Shown piece after piece: positions 13,157-62,880 of a stretch of DNA of 64,000 bases. A program made the translations under genes and the position numbers. This stretch comes from Acidobacteriota bacterium. GTDB lineage: Bacteria; Acidobacteriota; Blastocatellia; Pyrinomonadales; Pyrinomonadaceae. The stretch is from assembly GCA_020200235.1 (NCBI GenBank), contig JAIVJC010000008.1:449-64448 (forward strand), in the 5' to 3' direction. The notes beneath the pieces are model-generated. The model did no database searches and was not told the DNA's origin. It worked only from the letters and a program-made list of their open reading frames with translations. Numbering within the stretch: the stretch's first letter is position 1; every line of letters begins with the position of its first letter.

Positions 13157-14710
13157 CTAACGCCGCGGACTGCTCGAACGGACTGTCACTTCGCTGCCGC
13201 GCAACAGTTCCAGATCGTCGCGGCCCTGCACGTAGACCGAGCCGGCGCCCGCGCCCGCGCCGACGACCGCGCCGATGGCAGCGCCCGAGCCGCCGCCCGC
13301 GATGGCTCCGATGATGGCGCCGACCGCCGTGCCGATAGCCGTGCGCTGCACGGTGCGGTTCGTCTGGCTGCTGTCGCGCACGCCGCCCTCGTTATCGACC
13401 TTGACGCTCTCGCCGTTAGTCGAGCGGATGCCCTCGACGAAGCCGGAGAAGGTGTAGCTGCGCCCGTCGCGCAGGACGATGCGGTCGAAGTTGAAGCTCA
13501 TCTCCGAGCGACCCGTGACGCGACCCGAGCGGGCGACGCCCGAGATGTGACCCTGCAGCGACGCGCCCGCGTACTCCGAAGGCTGCGTGACCGTCATCGT
13601 GAACTGCTCGCCCTCTCGCGTGGTGCGCGTGCTCAGGTCCTGATCGAGCGTGGCGCTCAGCGTGACGCCGTCGGGCACGATGAACTCGCTGCTCGCGGTC
13701 GGCACGGTCGTCCCGGCTGTGTAGCCGCCGCCACGGTAAACGTCGAATTGCGCTACGTCGGACGTGCGCTCGTAGACGCTGCGGACGGTAACGGGCGTGC
13801 GCAGGTTGATGTCGGAGATGCGGCGGGTGACTTCGAGCCGCCGACCGCCCTCTATCGGATCGAACGTGACCGTGAAGTCGCTGTCGCGGTCGCCGGTCGT
13901 GCTGACGATGAGCTGGTCGCCGTAGACGCTCGCCCTGGCGCGGACGGAGTGCCCGTCAGCCGCCTGCTCGACGCGCTCGCGCCCGTCGGCGACGAACGTG
14001 ATCTGCGGGGCGCGGGTCGAAGCGATGGTCACCTGCGTGCCGCGACGCTCGACGGCGAGTGTGTCGGGCGCTTCGAGGCGCGCGATCAGGGCGTCCTCGG
14101 TGCGCTGCCGGTTATAACCCGGAAGGGCTCTCGACGCGTTCTGCGCCGCGGTGCGCGGATCGTCGCTGCGCGAAACGTCGAGGCGGTAAGTGCCGGTCAG
14201 CAGACGGTCGACGCCGTAGACAGTGCTCGTGCCCGGTAACGGGTTGTTGCCGTAGCCGCCGCGAGCCGTGTCGGGGTTCCAGGTGATGCCGTAGGCGCTC
14301 GCCAGCTCGCCGAGATCGGCGCGGACGGTCGCCCAGTCGTCGTTGACGTTACCCTCGAGCTGGTTGCGTCTGAGGAAATTATCGACGAGCGTCGCGCGGT
14401 CGAGCACGAGACGGACGTCGGCGACGGTCGCCCGCCGCTGATTGTTGCGCGTGCGGAGCTGCGTCGTGGCGTTGACGAAGTCTGTGATGTAAAGGTTGAT
14501 GTTGTTCTCGCGCCGCGTGTTGTCGATGCGGCTGTTCCTGATCGCGTAGTCGAGGTCCGTGCGGAAGCGCGCCGTGTCGCTCTGGACGCGGCTGATGATC
14601 TGCGCCACCTGGAAGCGGTTGACGCGCGCGCGCTGCGCCTGCGCCGTCAGCCCCGTGGTGACAAAGGCTAAAAGGAGTGCCGCCGAAATGATTCTTCTTG
14701 CGTGGTTCAT
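13157..14710 (-). CDS. Secreted protein of unknown function with C-terminal glycine-zipper segment
   Basis: 517-aa ORF with a signal peptide (ALLLAFVTTGLTAQAQ). It has an N-terminal helical region and a beta-rich middle. The C-terminal segment AIGTAVGAIIGAIAGGGSGAAIGAVVGAGAGAGS is a YMGG/Rick_17kDa-type glycine zipper. Confidence 0.7.
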   Translation of the reverse strand: MNHARRIISAALLLAFVTTGLTAQAQRARVNRFQVAQIISRVQSDTARFRTDLDYAIRNSRIDNTRRENNINLYITDFVNATTQLRTRNNQRRATVADVRLVLDRATLVDNFLRRNQLEGNVNDDWATVRADLGELASAYGITWNPDTARGGYGNNPLPGTSTVYGVDRLLTGTYRLDVSRSDDPRTAAQNASRALPGYNRQRTEDALIARLEAPDTLAVERRGTQVTIASTRAPQITFVADGRERVEQAADGHSVRARASVYGDQLIVSTTGDRDSDFTVTFDPIEGGRRLEVTRRISDINLRTPVTVRSVYERTSDVAQFDVYRGGGYTAGTTVPTASSEFIVPDGVTLSATLDQDLSTRTTREGEQFTMTVTQPSEYAGASLQGHISGVARSGRVTGRSEMSFNFDRIVLRDGRSYTFSGFVEGIRSTNGESVKVDNEGGVRDSSQTNRTVQRTAIGTAVGAIIGAIAGGGSGAAIGAVVGAGAGAGSVYVQGRDDLELLRGSEVTVRSSSPRR

Positions 14711-49857: not shown

Positions 49858-51066
49858 TTACTTCCCCGAAGGCCGAGTCTTTAGCTTGCCCACCGCGTCC
49901 CTGATCTCGGCGGCGTTGCGCGCGTCGGGCACGTCCTTTAAATACTGCTCGAAGGCGAGCCGGGCGAGATCGAACTTCTGCTGGTGGAAGTAGAGCTGAC
50001 CGAGCATGAGCTGCGCGTAGCCGGCGCGCGCGCCGCCGAGCTCGTAGGCGCGCAGCAGCGAGCGCTCAGCCTCCGGCAGCTGCTTGAGCTGGATCAGACC
50101 GCCGCCGAGCAGCAGGTGCGCGTTGAACCCTGTGGGCTCAAGCTCGGTCGCGCGCCGCAACTCCCTGACCGCCTCCACCATTTTAGCCTCGCGGCTCAGC
50201 ACCCGCCCCAGTTTGTAATGCAGCTCAGCCCGCTCCTCGCGCGAGAGGGTCTCTCCGGCGAGACCGGCGCGCAGAGCCTTGGCGGTCTCAGCCAGGCGTC
50301 CCGCGTCGTAGAGCGCGTCGGCTAAGCTCGCGCGCAGGCCGGGCAGCAACGGGTTCTCTTTGAAGAGCGTCTGGAGCAGGTCGGCGGCTTCGTCGTGCTT
50401 GCCCATGCGGTTGAGCGTGATGCCGAGGTTGAGCCGCGAGGGGGCGAAGCGGTTGCTGATCTTTATCGCGCGCTGGAAGGTGTCGGCTGCTTCCTCCAAC
50501 CGATTAATCTTCATGTAGACGACGCCGAGATCGTTGAGCGCGCGCAGGTACTGCGGGTGAAGACTCACGGCTCGCTTGAGGCTCTCGATGCCGGCGTCGG
50601 TCTGCCCCTTGACTATCGCCTCCATCCCCTCCCTGTAGGCTGACTGCGCGCCCGCCGGCACGTCCGCGTCGAGGGTGGCGACATCGATCACGCCCGCGCG
50701 CGGCGTCGCGGCGGCTTTGAGCGGGCGGAGGAAGACCGTCGTGTAAGGGATGTCGCCCATGTTGGAGAGGCGGAACACGACCGTCGTGTCGTCGTACGTC
50801 TGCCGGTCGCCGTTGACGAAGATGGTGTAGTTGCCGGGCTTCATGAGGGATCGGGGCATGCTGTATTTGCCCTTCGAGTCCGTGTAGAGCGTCTCGATGC
50901 GCCCGTCGTCGCGCGACAGCGTGAACCGTAACTCGTGGCTGAACTGGCCCCCGCCCGGCATGAAAAACTGGATGACGGGCGGAGCGCCCGGGCTTTGGGC
51001 CGAGACGCCGAGCGTGCACAGGAGGATGACGTGCGCGAGGAGAAGAAGGGTTCGCGTGAGTCTCAT
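49858..51066 (-). CDS. Secreted TPR-repeat protein with beta-rich N-terminal domain (copy 1)
   Basis: ATG 51066 (MRLTRTLLLLAHVILLCTLGVSAQ). The N-domain reads VIQFFMPGGGQFSHELRFTLSRDDGRIETLYTDSKGKY. About 7 TPR units follow (e.g. YLRALNDLGVVYMKINRLEEAADTFQRAIKI). It is a paralog of 55585..56784. Confidence 0.8.
   Translation of the reverse strand: MRLTRTLLLLAHVILLCTLGVSAQSPGAPPVIQFFMPGGGQFSHELRFTLSRDDGRIETLYTDSKGKYSMPRSLMKPGNYTIFVNGDRQTYDDTTVVFRLSNMGDIPYTTVFLRPLKAAATPRAGVIDVATLDADVPAGAQSAYREGMEAIVKGQTDAGIESLKRAVSLHPQYLRALNDLGVVYMKINRLEEAADTFQRAIKISNRFAPSRLNLGITLNRMGKHDEAADLLQTLFKENPLLPGLRASLADALYDAGRLAETAKALRAGLAGETLSREERAELHYKLGRVLSREAKMVEAVRELRRATELEPTGFNAHLLLGGGLIQLKQLPEAERSLLRAYELGGARAGYAQLMLGQLYFHQQKFDLARLAFEQYLKDVPDARNAAEIRDAVGKLKTRPSGK
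50521..50588. repeat. 68-nt tract identical to 56248-56315 (inside the two TPR paralogs)
   Basis: gacgccgagatcgttgagcgcgcgcaggtactgcgggtgaagactcacggctcgcttgaggctctcga occurs at both places. The flanking paralogous sequence is clearly diverged. Confidence 0.85.
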
Positions 51067-55584: not shown

Positions 55585-56784
55585 TTACTTGCCGCGCAAC
55601 CTGTTCTTGATCTTCACAGTCAGCGCCGTAATCTGCGCCGCGTTCGGCGACTGCGGCACGTCCTTCAGATACTGCTCGAAGGCGCGCAGCGCCGGCTCGA
55701 ATTTATTCTGCTCCAGGTAGAGCTGCCCGAGCAGGAGTTGCGCGTGCCCGACTCCCGCCCCGCCCAGCTCGTAGGCGCGCAGGAGAGACTTCTCCGCCTC
55801 CTCGGGGCGTTTCAACTGGAGCAGCCCGCCGCCCAAGAGCAGGTGCGCGTTCGCCGCGTCGGGCTGTAGCTCGACCGCGCGGCGCAGCTCCTTGACCGCC
55901 TCCGCGACCTTGTCCTCGCGGCTCAGCACGCGCCCGAGTTTGTAGTGCAGCTCGCCGCGCGCCGCGCGGTCGAGCCCTTCGCTGTCGAGCGCGGCGGCGA
56001 GTAGTTTCCGCGCCTCGCCGAGCCGACCCACGCCGTAGAGCGCGTCGGCGTAAGTGACCCGCGCGCCTTCGAGGTTCGGGCTGTCGCGGAAGAGCGTCTC
56101 CAGCAGCGCCACCGCCTCCTCGTGCCGGCCCTGCCGGTTCAGCACCGCGCCGAGGTTGAGGCGCGCGTGGGGGAAGCGGCTGTTGATCTTGATCGCGCGG
56201 CTGAAAGAGTCGGCGGCTTCGTCCAGCCGGTTCGACTTCAGGTAGAGGACGCCGAGATCGTTGAGCGCGCGCAGGTACTGCGGGTGAAGACTCACGGCTC
56301 GCTTGAGGCTCTCGACGGCTTCGGCGAGTCTCCCCTTGCCCGCCGCTTCCATCCCGGCGTCGTATGCGGCGCGCGCCGCGGCGGGCACGCCCAGATCGAA
56401 CTCGGACAGATCGACGACGTTCGCAGGGGGCACCGGCACGCCCTTCAGCGGTCTGAGGAAGACGGGCACGTAGGTGACGCCGCCCCCGGCGACGATGCGG
56501 AAGTTGGTGGTCGTCGTCTCGTAAGTCCGACCGTCGCCGTAAGCGGTCACGGTGTAGCTGCTCTCTTGCGAGAGGCTCCCGGTGAGATCGAATTTGCCCT
56601 TCGAATCCGTGAAGAGGGTTTCGACCCGCCCGTCGTCGCGCGTGAGCGTGAAGCGAATCTCCCGCGCCGGGTGCGACCTGTCGGGCATGAAGAACTGTAT
56701 GACGTGGGGAGCCTGCGCGCGGGCGCTCGCGGCGCACGCCAGGAGGCAGAGGGCGAGGGCGAGACTGTTTCGACGGACGCTCAT
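55585..56784 (-). CDS. Secreted TPR-repeat protein with beta-rich N-terminal domain (copy 2)
   Basis: 399 aa. The signal region has a possible lipobox (ALCLLACAASARAQ). The N-domain reads VIQFFMPDRSHPAREIRFTLTRDDGRVETLFTDSKGKF and TPR units follow. Confidence 0.8.
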   Translation of the reverse strand: MSVRRNSLALALCLLACAASARAQAPHVIQFFMPDRSHPAREIRFTLTRDDGRVETLFTDSKGKFDLTGSLSQESSYTVTAYGDGRTYETTTTNFRIVAGGGVTYVPVFLRPLKGVPVPPANVVDLSEFDLGVPAAARAAYDAGMEAAGKGRLAEAVESLKRAVSLHPQYLRALNDLGVLYLKSNRLDEAADSFSRAIKINSRFPHARLNLGAVLNRQGRHEEAVALLETLFRDSPNLEGARVTYADALYGVGRLGEARKLLAAALDSEGLDRAARGELHYKLGRVLSREDKVAEAVKELRRAVELQPDAANAHLLLGGGLLQLKRPEEAEKSLLRAYELGGAGVGHAQLLLGQLYLEQNKFEPALRAFEQYLKDVPQSPNAAQITALTVKIKNRLRGK

Positions 56785-56857: not shown

Positions 56858-57730
56858 TTACGGGTAAAGCGAATTGAGCAGGTTCGCGAGCCGGTAGCCC
56901 GCGAGCGCGATCCGTCTGCGCGCCGTCGCCTGCGCCTTCGCCTCGTAGGCTGGCGTCGGCTTGGAGTTCTCCGCGAGCGCGTAGACGACCGTGCGCGCCA
57001 GCGCGTTGCCCTCCTCCGCCCACTTCTGCGGGTCGAGTTCTTTAGCCTCCGGCATCGACGCAACCGGGTTCGCCGCGACTATTTCTTTCGCGTAGGCGTC
57101 GAGCCGTCGGCGGTCGCGCGCGTCGAGCGGTCGGTCGGGTCGCCAGAAGTGGAACGAGCCCGCCGCCGAGTCCCAGTAGTAGTGGAGGTGATCGACTTCG
57201 GGCAGGCCCGCGAGCTTGAACTCGTTGCCGCCCGCGTCGCCGTCGAGGTTCGTCGGCGTCACCCGCGTCGAGGCGTGCAGCGGCTGGTGGATGTCACCGA
57301 CGAGGTGGTAGAGGTAGCCGAGCAGCTCCGCGTCCTTCTTGTCCGAGCCGGGGCCCTTGCGCAGCGCGTCCGCCGCCCAGATGATGCGCGCGACGGCGTG
57401 CTCCTTGCCCGGCTGCAACTTCGGGTCGGGCGGCGTGCCGTCGAAGATGGGGATGTCGGTGTAGTGCCACACGCGCAGATCGTCGTGCGTCGAGTCCGCC
57501 TTGATGTCGTCCATCCACGCGCCGAGCGTCGTGCCGTCGTAGGTCTTGCCGCAGAAGCGGATCGTCTTCGCCATCGCGTCCACCTTCGCCTTCGCCGCCG
57601 CGCTCAGGCGCTCGTAGGCGATCTGCGAGACGAGCAGGTGCCCCGCGTCGTCCCACGCGAGGGCGGTCTGCGGCGCGAGCAGCAGCAGCGAGAGCAGGAG
57701 CGGCAGAGCCTTCAAACTTTTTCCCATCAT
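56858..57730 (-). CDS. S1/P1-type zinc nuclease, secreted
   Basis: The signal peptide ends ...APQTALA, followed by WDDAGH (the mature N-terminal Trp ligand). Motifs HYTDIP, LYHLVGDIHQPLH, GGNEF and HYYWDS are in S1/P1 order. Confidence 0.8.
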   Translation of the reverse strand: MMGKSLKALPLLLSLLLLAPQTALAWDDAGHLLVSQIAYERLSAAAKAKVDAMAKTIRFCGKTYDGTTLGAWMDDIKADSTHDDLRVWHYTDIPIFDGTPPDPKLQPGKEHAVARIIWAADALRKGPGSDKKDAELLGYLYHLVGDIHQPLHASTRVTPTNLDGDAGGNEFKLAGLPEVDHLHYYWDSAAGSFHFWRPDRPLDARDRRRLDAYAKEIVAANPVASMPEAKELDPQKWAEEGNALARTVVYALAENSKPTPAYEAKAQATARRRIALAGYRLANLLNSLYP

Positions 57731-57792
57731 TTCAACTCCAAAAGCGTTTTATGAGAGCAGGGTAATACCTATCCTCTAAGGTGCAGGCATTC

Positions 57793-58765
57793 CTATGCCT
57801 CGTAGGGACCCAAGAACCGCGCACCGTTGAAGTGAATCATGTGGGTAGCTGCCTCGGCAACCCACACCTCGGTCTCTCCATGATATTTCGCCGAGGTATT
57901 TGAGCAGCGTCCTGCGGTCGAGGAATGCGGTGACGAATACCAAACCCGCCTTCGAGCCACGGAATAGGGCTTTCAATTCTTCGTGGCGTTTCGGGTTCAC
58001 GGGTCCGTGGCTCGTGACGGCTTCGACGAGCACCAACCAATTCCGCTCGACGTGATGCACGACGACATCAGGCATCTTGCCGTGCGCGTCCACGCTGATT
58101 CCTAGCTCCGCGAAAGTCTCCTGATCGAAGATCGCCCACTTCTCGTCGGCATCGCCGACGTAGACCACCCTACCGCCCGGCGTGAAGTAGGGGCAAAAGT
58201 CCTCGATGATTCTAGCGATCAAAACGTTCTGACCGCCCGCCGAGAGCGTGAAGGTTCGACCTGTCGGTGTCGTGACAGGTATGCGGCTCATCTCGCGCGC
58301 CTGCGTGTATTTCTCCTGTAGCGTCTCAACGGTCGGCAGATAGGCCTGCAATTTTTGCTCCCACTAGTCGGAGCCGAAGGCGCGCAGTACCTCCAACGCG
58401 GCGGCTTCGATCTGATAGACGGTCTTGCCGCTGTTGATGGGGCGCGATGGCTTGTCGGGGTTGGCGATGATCAGCGCGGCGTCGCGGAACTGATGCACGG
58501 TCTGGCGGCGCACGCTCTCGCGCGTGTTCGGCTTGTACTGCTTGCCGTAGTGCTCGGCGAAGAAGTCCATCATCTCCGTCACTCCTCGCAGCGGCGCGCG
58601 CGCCTCTGCCCACGGCGTTTCCGGTCGTAGGTCGAGCAGCGCGAGCAGCGTGAGCGCGGATCGCTCGTTCTGCTGCGCCGAGGGCAAGCCGAGGGCTTTC
58701 AGGGCGCGCGCGGCTTCGTCAATTCGCTTCTTCGCAGGGATCGGATCGGAGGTGTCGGTGTTCAT
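57793..58765 (-). pseudogene. PstI/BsuBI-family type II restriction endonuclease, disrupted by in-frame TAG and a 1-nt frameshift
   Basis: The N-domain runs from ATG 58765 (LGLPSAQQNERSALTLLALL, NTRESVRRQTVHQF, PSRPINSGKTVYQIE). TAG occurs at 58364-58366. The same frame then continues with the catalytic domain (GGRVVYVGDADEKW, HGKMPDVVV, VEAVTSHGPV, VFVTAF). The conserved tail [30 protein letters not shown] is readable only by skipping nt 57877. Confidence 0.75.
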
Positions 58766-60286
58766 GTGCAGCAGTTGAGAGGCGATGAGATGATCGAGCG
58801 CGCCTTGGTCGAGGGCGCGTTCGCCGACGCTCGCGCCCACAGCCTCTAGCTCCGATCGGGAGGGGTATTTGAGGCTCCGCAGATCGGTGGCGTTGACCTG
58901 TGTGTGCCCGTTGAACTGACGGAAGTAAGCGTCGAGCAGGCTGGAGTTGAGGAACGCTGCCAGCCCGCGCGCCAGATCAGCGCCCATCCCCTTACCCATC
59001 TCGTGAAAATAATTCAGATGGTTCTCAAAGCCGACACGCGGCGCGCGCGTGCGCTCCGGATCGTAGATGGCGGCGACGACGCGGCGCGGCTCTTCCTTCG
59101 AGGAGAAGCGTTTGACGAGCACGTACACGCCGGACGGCACGAGCAGATCGGCAGAGCCGGGCGCGTCGGCGATCCAGTTCAACTTTTTGCTGTGCGGAGT
59201 GGGGTGGCAGACGTAGCCGCCGCAGAAGTGGTGCGGGTAGATGAGCGGCACCGCGTCCTCGGTGGGCTCACGCCGCAGGTGCTCGGTGGCTCTAAAATCT
59301 ACGACGCGCCCCGTCGAGACCGTAAGACCGAGATCAGCAAGCGTCGCCGTGAATCGCCCCATGCGCGCGGCGACCCTGTAGCCGAGCTCGTCCGGCACGA
59401 TGCGGATAAAGGCGTCGGGATCGTCGGGCTGCACCAATTGCTCCGGCGGCACCTGCCTGATCATCATCGCCTCGTCATCCAGATCGCTGCTGGAGGAGAC
59501 GATCACGCTCCCGCCGTCGCCCACCTGCTTGACGGCGTGAAAAATGATGTTTTCTTGCAGCACGTCGTCGTCGCCAAACGCGAGGTTGCGCGCGTCGAAG
59601 AGGTGGATGCGCTTGAATCTCATCGCTTCGAGGAACGACCGCCTGAACGACTTGAAGTAAGAGCCGTTGCAGAAGCTGCGCGGCGTAATAGCGACCAGTT
59701 CCCCGGCAGGCTCAAGCAGCCGCGTCACCAGCGAGACGAAGGCGCTGTAGAAGTTAGAGGTCTCGACGCCGACCGAGCGCAGCAGTTGGCGTGCTGCGGA
59801 GCCGCTGCTCATCTTGCGGTACGGCGGGTTGAGGATCGCGTGTGTGTAAGCCTCGCCCCGCGCCGCGCCGACCACACGTGCAGCCGCCTCGATGAAGTCT
59901 TCGCCGCGCACCTCCGCGCTGAAATTGATGCCGGCACCCTCGCACTCGACGCGACAGGCTTCGAGCGTGTCGCGCAGGTAGCCGACGAGGGCGGGATCGA
60001 TCTCGTAAGCTGTGACCGACAGTTCGGCGGGCGGCGACTGCCAGCGGCAGACCTCGGCGACGAACGCAGCGGAGAGAGCGCCCACGCCCGCCCCTGCGTC
60101 GAGCAGGCGGACATGCTCGCGCGGCGGCTGGAAGAGTGATGCCATGAAGCGCGCGATCGCTGGCGGCGTGAGGAACTGACCCCACTCGGCGCGCCGCCCG
60201 GCGTCGAGCTTGCGCGCCACGTCGAGCCGGAAGAACTCGGCGCGTTCGGCGGGCGTTGCAAAACCCTTTTGTACGTCTGCACTCAT
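58364..60286 (-). CDS. N6-adenine DNA methyltransferase (Eco57I/PstI-like, NPPY) with read-through into the REase N-domain
   Basis: ATG 60286 (MSADVQKGF). Motifs FLTPPAIARFM, LLDAGAGVGAL (motif I) and ILNPPYRK (motif IV). The target-recognition-like C-region reads NGHTQVNATDLRSLKYP. There is no stop before 58364. The track ORF part upstream of 60286 is a shadow. Confidence 0.8.
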   Translation of the reverse strand: MSADVQKGFATPAERAEFFRLDVARKLDAGRRAEWGQFLTPPAIARFMASLFQPPREHVRLLDAGAGVGALSAAFVAEVCRWQSPPAELSVTAYEIDPALVGYLRDTLEACRVECEGAGINFSAEVRGEDFIEAAARVVGAARGEAYTHAILNPPYRKMSSGSAARQLLRSVGVETSNFYSAFVSLVTRLLEPAGELVAITPRSFCNGSYFKSFRRSFLEAMRFKRIHLFDARNLAFGDDDVLQENIIFHAVKQVGDGGSVIVSSSSDLDDEAMMIRQVPPEQLVQPDDPDAFIRIVPDELGYRVAARMGRFTATLADLGLTVSTGRVVDFRATEHLRREPTEDAVPLIYPHHFCGGYVCHPTPHSKKLNWIADAPGSADLLVPSGVYVLVKRFSSKEEPRRVVAAIYDPERTRAPRVGFENHLNYFHEMGKGMGADLARGLAAFLNSSLLDAYFRQFNGHTQVNATDLRSLKYPSRSELEAVGASVGERALDQGALDHLIASQLLHMNTDTSDPIPAKKRIDEAARALKALGLPSAQQNERSALTLLALLDLRPETPWAEARAPLRGVTEMMDFFAEHYGKQYKPNTRESVRRQTVHQFRDAALIIANPDKPSRPINSGKTVYQIEAAALEVLRAFGSD

Positions 60287-60345
60287 CAGCGGTGGAGAGG
60301 AACTGCGACACCCTGCGCGCAGATGTCGCGGATGAGATAATTCAT

Positions 60346-62880
<2,535 letters not shown>

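Follow-up and report, generated by a model that had tools for sequence, protein, structure and literature searches.

A single-chain PstI/BsuBI-type restriction-modification gene in a Pyrinomonadaceae lineage, with its nuclease half recently interrupted and its methylase reading frame intact

INTRODUCTION

Restriction-modification (R-M) systems of the BsuBI, PstI and SdaI kind belong to Type IIP and keep their methyltransferase (M) and endonuclease (R) in separate genes, the endonuclease consisting of an N-terminal helix-turn-helix (HTH) domain (PF17728) followed by a C-terminal catalytic domain (PF06616). Here, we describe a relative of these systems in a 64-kb window (the whole stretch of DNA analyzed, from contig JAIVJC010000008.1 of assembly GCA_020200235.1) of a Pyrinomonadaceae (Acidobacteriota) genome. 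Its endonuclease half has the same domain layout, and M and R lie in one reading frame, which is now interrupted.

The presence of both activities in one polypeptide is the hallmark of Type IIC enzymes, whose natural examples are enzymes of the Eco57I/MmeI kind. Characterized natural IIC/IIG enzymes mostly have an N-terminal nuclease and one recognition module shared by both activities, and they cut outside asymmetric sites. An engineered fusion, RM.Eco29kI, is another Type IIC example, and head-to-tail systems such as BsuBI, whose M and R genes are arranged in this way, were predicted to be able to give natural Type IIC derivatives (PMC3039593). Type IIC enzymes are proposed to be controlled by their assembly state, with the monomer active in methylation and the dimer in restriction (PMC12707154). 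The fused family to which the window gene belongs shares the single polypeptide, and by analogy a control by assembly would be expected for it. In contrast to the characterized natural enzymes, its order is M then R, it has two complete recognition modules, namely, the methyltransferase region and the endonuclease HTH, and it originates from palindrome-cutting Type IIP systems. In the literature searched, we found no biochemical description of a natural BsuBI/PstI M-R fusion, only the above-mentioned prediction (PMC3039593).

Solitary methyltransferases that arose by endonuclease loss form a further point of comparison, since they too combine an intact methylase with an inactivated nuclease. 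Unlike them, the putative orphan described here keeps a covalently attached endonuclease HTH, and the nuclease was inactivated so recently that further decay is not visible. Our reading of the locus, which we consider very probable, is that a one-gene, single-polypeptide R-M enzyme was inserted into this lineage and that its nuclease was later knocked out by a TAG codon, leaving the methylase open reading frame (ORF) intact.

RESULTS

Domain content of the interrupted gene

The window had previously been interpreted from its letters alone (the sequence-only reading) as holding a decaying PstI/BsuBI-type R-M module, with an intact methyltransferase read through into a twice-broken endonuclease. 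All coordinates and motifs of that reading, i.e., ATG 60286, LLDAGAGVGAL, NPPY, TAG 58364-58366, nucleotide (nt) 57877 and TAG 57793-57795, were reproduced. On the minus strand, the frame starts at ATG 60286 (MSADVQKGF...), 59 nt past the stop of the upstream gene, has no stop past ...DHLIASQLLH, and crosses ATG 58763-58765 into the endonuclease sequence (QQNERSALTLLALL / NTRESVRRQTVHQF). It ends at TAG 58364-58366, giving a 640-amino-acid (aa) M-HTH product; with a sense codon in place of the TAG and without nt 57877, the gene would encode 830 aa. The features are listed below, where L-numbers denote compared loci and P-numbers homologous proteins. L001 and L002 are the NCBI metagenome-assembled genome (MAG) assemblies GCA_046262335.1 and GCA_020200215.1, respectively, both of which carry the window's locus.

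57793 to 60286, minus strand: whole interrupted single-chain M-R gene, 82-83% identical to the intact homologues P0002 and P0003 of 832-834 aa
58766 to 60286, minus strand: gamma-class N6-adenine DNA methyltransferase module, aa 1-507 (PF07669, PDLC03227, conserved columns)
58370 to 58732, minus strand: BsuBI/PstI endonuclease N-terminal HTH (DNA-recognition) domain, in frame with the methyltransferase (PF17728, SdaI alignment)
58364 to 58366, minus strand: in-frame TAG nonsense codon in the linker between HTH and catalytic domain, ending the 640-aa M-HTH product (homologue codon comparison)
58349 to 58362, minus strand: Shine-Dalgarno-like GGGAG (58358-58362), 6-nt spacer and TTG (58349-58351) (direct sequence reading)
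57878 to 58282, minus strand: BsuBI/PstI catalytic domain of PD-(D/E)XK type, severed from the HTH by the TAG (PF06616)
57877, minus strand: extra A (as read on the minus strand), a +1 frameshift after Trp 57878-57880 (comparison with L001, L002 and L012-L015)
57793 to 57876, minus strand: out-of-frame conserved 27-aa C-terminal tail with the native TAG stop (57793-57795) (other-frame PF06616 match, homologues)
57731 to 60345, no strand: extent of the insertion, the gene with short flanks (empty site in seven related MAG loci)

The family assignment holds, as all three expected Pfam domains are found. In the methyltransferase module, PF07669 (Eco57I) matches residues 150-232 with 36.3 bits against a cut-off of 25.3, and motif I LLDAGAGVGAL (aa ~61-71) lies upstream of motif IV NPPY (aa ~153-156). 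The stand-alone MTase_II model of PADLOC, PDLC03227, is covered over positions 6-489 of 494 (E 1.4e-163), and the stand-alone endonuclease model over positions 6-316 of 317. Since both models are matched over their full length, both modules appear complete, with the C-terminal target-recognition region of the methyltransferase and the HTH of the nuclease included. In NCBIfam, no family-level model matched, and only weak partial matches to other methylases were obtained.

The endonuclease half begins with PF17728 (BsuBI_PstI_RE_N) at aa 519-639 (151.7 bits against a cut-off of 27, E 1.5e-44, profile positions 1-121 of 140). Past the TAG, PF06616 (BsuBI_PstI_RE) follows with 169.1 bits (E 5.9e-50, profile positions 1-136 of 154), whereas profile positions 133-153 match a different frame only (57793-57960; 22.5 bits, below the cut-off, E 8e-5), owing to the +1 A at 57877. 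This catalytic domain is complete in the sibling assemblies L001 and L002; in these two and in the window, no uninterrupted ORF joins it to the HTH domain because the TAG lies between them. The repaired endonuclease, counted from Met 58765, has 323 aa, the PstI-like size given in the sequence-only reading, and can be aligned over its whole length with SdaI, whose solved structure 2ixs also has 323 aa (residues 8-322, E 5e-74). Its identity to a stand-alone plasmid BsuBI/PstI endonuclease is 58% (catalytic domain/R part). Because the 27-aa C-terminal tail is near-invariant in the 111 full-length homologues described below and conserved in SdaI too, its loss should inactivate the enzyme by itself.

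The frame was said to continue four codons past the TAG. It does continue in frame, although without such a gap: homology resumes directly past the TAG (W-E-Q-K-L, aligned with WEEKL of homologues), and the four codons reflect only the first possible start codon, TTG 58351. Two candidate defects in the endonuclease half were considered and rejected. The substitution E822A falls at a position that holds V in the plasmid endonuclease and S in SdaI, and the absence of a catalytic Lys (EAVTSHGP here, EAVKSKGP in SdaI) is shared by stand-alone family members, which also have T at this position.

M-R fusion as the native form of the family

A search with the 640-aa M-HTH product as the query gave at least 8000 matches, and the best 120 were examined. 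Single proteins of 780-870 aa with Eco57I, RE_N and RE domains make up 111 of these 120, at 57-83% identity. They are uninterrupted across the M/R junction (...LLHMNTDTSDPIPAKKRIDEAARALKALG...), and the junction ...LLHMNTDTSDPIPAKKRIDEAA... is conserved. Moreover, the DNA of L012-L015 confirms that fused homologues are not gene-calling artefacts, and the fused PADLOC model PDLC03359 (840 positions) is matched end to end. Judged from these homologues, in-frame M-R continuity is the native form of a large family and not a product of decay or read-through. Since the fused form is conserved across the homologue clade, the missing stop, which the sequence-only reading had taken for decay, is ancestral to the gene, much older than this copy and no part of its decay.

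The fused clade is also diverse, as about 20 full-length fusion clusters (50% identity clusters), 36-50% identical to the query, are among the best 150 of 1.84 billion representatives, which were scanned exhaustively. Nearly as many clusters in the same best 150, about 19, are 600-745 aa long with a query match ending at about residue 590-690, i.e., methylase plus HTH without the catalytic domain (for example, P0124, P0133, P0136, P0138-P0140, P0142, P0150, P0152, P0157 and P0256; two clusters were checked). These short clusters may be stable nuclease-less forms, pseudogene fragments or contig-end truncations. The sequence-only reading had offered an unusual M-R fusion as its alternative; the fusion is borne out, yet with about 20 such clusters and a model of its own (PDLC03359) it is not unusual in sequence space. 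The clade is already captured by Pfam architectures and by the PADLOC model in defense-system profile libraries.

Intact homologues are solitary, found in unrelated neighborhoods with no conserved partner gene. One of them, P0009 (L014:7726-12502), lies beside TIR-domain, AAA_35 ATPase and RHS-repeat genes in a defense-island-like setting. The nearest two-gene relatives found are located on proteobacterial plasmids, with M (490 aa) and R (317 aa) encoded co-linearly with a 4-nt overlap, at about 50% identity, and the fusion clade is derived from BsuBI/PstI-type two-gene systems. The sequence-only reading had described the PstI genes as divergent; the plasmid relatives share the co-linear order given for BsuBI in PMC3039593. 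As a sequence family, the fusions almost certainly represent a large group of single-chain R-M enzymes of the palindrome type, in which two recognition modules exist independently of each other. Members of this family carry M and R in one translated polypeptide, as Type IIC enzymes do; the window copy does not, as its ORF ends before the catalytic domain.

A different arrangement is seen in a distant relative, L020:2501-5550, where a 655-aa methylase-HTH protein that ends just past the HTH is followed by a separate 338-aa protein. The latter has a divergent PF06616 domain (29% identity) as its C-terminal half, and no Pfam family matches the 188 aa of its N-terminal region. The L020 locus, which adjoins SMODS/DncV-like (CBASS-type) and UvrD-helicase genes, may represent a distinct split architecture.

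Two lesions in the endonuclease half

The closest intact homologue, L012/L013, reads GAC GAG TGG at the site where the window, L001 and L002 read GAC TAG TGG, and at this column the 111 full-length homologues have E, Q, K, D or A and never a stop. The TAG is present in L001, which differs from the window by 9 single-nucleotide polymorphisms (SNPs) in 8.8 kb, and in L002, which shows 0 SNPs in 6.7 kb. Since it is found in three assemblies, one of which is a distinguishable genotype, the TAG is a real and inherited mutation and the older of the two lesions.

The second lesion has a narrower distribution. Only the window reads TGG A GAG ACC, and L001, L002 and L012-L015 all read TGG GAG ACC. The extra A at 57877 is the sole indel between the window and either L001 (8.8 kb) or L002 (6.7 kb). 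Being unique to the window, it is either a private later mutation or an assembly error. A mutation appears the better explanation because the A is the sole indel in 11.6 kb of comparable sequence, because it falls within 559 nt (about 5% of that length) already freed from selection, and because no homopolymer length is changed, the A lying inside TGGGAG. The locus is thus once-broken in the population and twice-broken only in the window, so that the earlier claim of a doubly inactivated endonuclease applies to the window and not to the two near-identical assemblies, which have the TAG without the extra A.

Recent and recurrent loss of the nuclease

To place the inactivation in time, the window gene was compared with the 111 full-length homologues at columns conserved in at least 97% of them. 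Every such column is kept by the window: 116 of 116 in M, 40 of 40 in the HTH and 52 of 52 in R. At 90% conservation, only conservative changes are seen, three in M, one in the HTH and one in R. An older decay of the gene was rejected, as there is no deviation at any of the columns of at least 97% conservation, and from this retention the nuclease inactivation is recent. The earlier claim that the nuclease was inactivated and the methyltransferase kept agrees with these data, the M ORF and all its conserved positions being intact. At the sequence level, the window copy looks like an orphan methyltransferase, with its M ORF intact and its nuclease split off by the TAG and frameshifted, and the 640-aa M-HTH protein as a solitary methyltransferase is the likely present state of the locus.

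Similar breaks are found in other copies. The closest relative at the DNA level, L018:268-2770 (86%), has a frameshift at the M/R junction and two in-frame stops in R; the frameshift recreates a two-gene-like layout, with M of 511 aa and then R in a 4-nt overlap. L017 has a frameshift near aa 665-682 and L016 loses homology at aa 702, both with an intact M ORF. In L021/L022, the protein ends past the HTH and linker and is followed by an unrelated gene, a nuclease-less M-HTH form. Thus, a nuclease-side break with an intact M occurred independently in L016, L017 and L018, and L021 shows the solitary-methylase outcome as well. In every broken copy found, the damage lies in R. A search with M-HTH as its query would have overlooked copies with a damaged M, and this ascertainment-biased pattern is given with no statistic attached.

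A single-gene insertion between two housekeeping genes

The gene lies between a beta-lactamase/NamZ fusion gene (60346-62880) and an S1/P1 nuclease gene (56858-57730). In seven related MAG loci (L003-L008 and L010), labeled Pyrinomonadaceae or Acidobacteriota and with neighbor proteins 62-87% identical to the window's, this site is empty, and NamZ is directly followed by the S1/P1 nuclease gene without any R-M gene. All seven keep the gene order GH3, beta-lactamase/NamZ, S1/P1 nuclease, and five have the tetratricopeptide repeat (TPR) gene next. The gene has a GC content of 0.638 and a third-codon-position GC content (GC3) of 0.795, compared with 0.68-0.70 and 0.885-0.93 in its neighbors, and its nuclease part goes down to a GC of 0.58. 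Because related genomes have the empty site and because GC and GC3 are below those of the neighbors, the locus is a single-gene insertion of about 2.6 kb acquired horizontally, in line with what the sequence-only reading had drawn from its low GC.

Nucleotide similarity to other copies (86% to L018 and 85% to L012/L013) starts and stops at the ends of the coding sequence, and no flanks common to the gene's other copies were found. The gene was found to be bordered by neither direct nor inverted repeats, and it has neither a target-site duplication nor inverted repeats at its termini. A search for a sigma-70-like promoter gave none, and terminator-like matches were not above those in shuffled sequences.

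In some of the relatives, the empty site itself (L004:7840-8000, L005:4225-4445 and L003:1480-1535) carries a G+C-rich palindromic element of the repetitive extragenic palindromic (REP) or miniature inverted-repeat transposable element (MITE) type, for example, TGTAGGGGCAGGGCTTGTCCCTGCCC ... GGGCAGGGACAAGCCTTGCCCCTACA. The window, which has the R-M gene at this site, lacks the element, and the element may mark an insertion hot spot. Two further observations concern the neighboring genes. In L008:5400-7850 (MAG MFD09212.bin.1.134), similarity of the beta-lactamase/NamZ gene to the window protein is broken up into numerous short segments that lie in different frames, which looks like numerous indel errors in the assembly rather than biology. 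In the window, 49904-50628 shares 76% DNA identity with a portion of the TPR gene at 55585-56784, so that a paralog of this TPR gene lies some 5 kb from it, beyond a TonB-dependent receptor gene.

Target sequence and CTGCAG avoidance

Family membership points to CTGCAG, or a closely related sequence, as the most likely target. The 64-kb window contains a single CTGCAG (13553-13558), compared with 16.4 +/- 4 expected from dinucleotide shuffles. When the 2121 testable hexamers of the window are ranked, AGATCT (the BglII site; 0 vs 15.9) and CTGCAG (1 vs 12.8) are the two most depleted, with CTGCAG second, and palindromes account for almost all of the 25 hexamers with the strongest depletion. The same two sites are depleted in the pooled 99.6 kb of eight related MAG loci (L003-L010), with AGATCT at 0 vs 26.4 and CTGCAG at 4 vs 34.9. 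In gene-carrying loci of other taxa, CTGCAG is not specifically depleted relative to other palindromes. No CTGCAG avoidance was seen in the controls L011 and plasmid L019, nor in the plasmid with the two-gene version.

Since CTGCAG avoidance is lineage-wide and accompanied by a general palindrome depletion, it is not assignable to the window gene, and we rejected it as a specificity test for the gene. The depletion suggests instead a long-standing, lineage-wide restriction pressure of BglII and PstI specificity.

DISCUSSION

Proposed history of the locus

Putting the above-described results together, we propose the following history. The locus is one gene and not two, and it codes for a single-polypeptide R-M enzyme in the style of Type IIC, with an N-terminal gamma-class m6A methyltransferase carrying its own recognition region and, in its C-terminal part, an endonuclease of the PstI/BsuBI/SdaI type with both its HTH and its catalytic domain. 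Intact relatives would methylate as monomers and cut unmodified palindromes only after two nuclease halves dimerize, and such control by assembly could allow a one-gene system to establish safely without a controller protein. In one Pyrinomonadaceae (Acidobacteriota) lineage, a bare cassette of coding-sequence size was inserted between two housekeeping genes. A G-to-T change then turned a Glu codon of the linker into TAG, so that translation stops past the HTH, and the resulting 640-aa methylase-HTH product is expected to keep methylating while being unable to cut. Later, in the window genome, the 1-nt insertion at 57877 would have destroyed the tail of the now-untranslated or orphaned catalytic domain.

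Several points weigh against this history or parts of it. CTGCAG is equally depleted in relatives without the gene at the locus, within a general palindrome depletion, and SdaI, the relative with a solved structure, recognizes an 8-bp site. Continued methylation by the 640-aa product would follow from its sequence conservation; there are 0 substitutions in the gene among the three near-identical genomes, and the next relatives are at about 85% nucleotide identity. The sequence-only reading had allowed that both lesions might be assembly errors. This way out is closed for the TAG, which three assemblies share, and the +1 A may still be an assembly error and not a mutation; in addition, the window assembly and GCA_020200215.1, which differ by 0 SNPs, may not be independent.

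Alternative explanations

The locus could be a decaying two-gene system whose methyltransferase lost its stop and now reads through into the endonuclease gene, and a one-base frame change could indeed fuse genes arranged like the co-linear plasmid versions, which overlap by 4 nt and are about 50% identical. However, fusion is the conserved state of the clade, uninterrupted in 111 of the 120 best homologues with the junction conserved; this homologue set speaks decisively against a read-through origin, which we find hardly credible. It is very unlikely, too, that both lesions are assembly or sequencing errors and that the organism has an intact, active one-gene R-M system. The extra A fits such an error in being absent from two near-identical assemblies, but its position within TGGGAG, as the sole indel in 11.6 kb and inside the 559 nt freed from selection, does not, and the TAG recurs in three assemblies, one differing by 9 SNPs.

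Two further alternatives leave the TAG allele functional. Re-initiation at TTG 58351 could produce a separate catalytic subunit that works together with M-HTH as a split enzyme, at least in the siblings without the frameshift. GGGAG stands 6 nt before this TTG, which is 12 nt past the TAG; gene callers start a 185-aa ORF at the TTG in L001 and L002, the catalytic ORF of the sibling strains has no other lesion, and L020 encodes M-HTH followed by a separate PF06616-containing protein. Yet the conserved W-E...L coding sequence already accounts for both GGGAG and the Leu codon, so the GGGAG is probably incidental, and a stop at the TAG site occurs in none of the 111 full-length homologues. The conserved tail was subsequently lost in the window strain, as would be expected of a dead gene, and the L020 protein is not a bare catalytic domain but a divergent enzyme of 338 aa that has an N-terminal region of its own. 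To our knowledge, no PstI-family enzyme works with its HTH and catalytic domains on separate chains, and we consider a functional split unlikely; if it were true, M-HTH and a 21-kDa subunit, coupled via GGGAG-N6-TTG, would constitute a PstI-type nuclease functional on two chains. Least credible of all is a programmed recoding, in which low-frequency read-through of the TAG sets a high methylase-to-nuclease ratio. A stop exactly in the interdomain linker could in principle lower toxicity in this way, but the stop is conserved in no homologue, no downstream structure or repeat was found, and the gene's own terminator is also TAG (57793-57795), hence TAG is an ordinary stop here; the added frameshift of the window argues for neutrality as well. 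Thus, insertion of a one-gene enzyme followed by loss of its nuclease to the TAG is the reading that we retain.

Implications for the family

The locus is a real but ordinary case of R-M decay, of modest importance in itself. For annotation, a methylase that runs into an endonuclease in the fused clade should be taken as the native one-gene architecture and not as a pseudogene signature. The three genomes offer an ordered decay series leading from a one-gene R-M enzyme to a putative solitary methyltransferase, from acquisition through a nonsense mutation fixed in the population to a private frameshift, and at least four other copies have independently taken the same decay route. Soil metagenomes are rich in members of the fused PstI/BsuBI clade, and its intact member P0003 is a candidate for the assembly-regulation idea of Type IIC enzymes.

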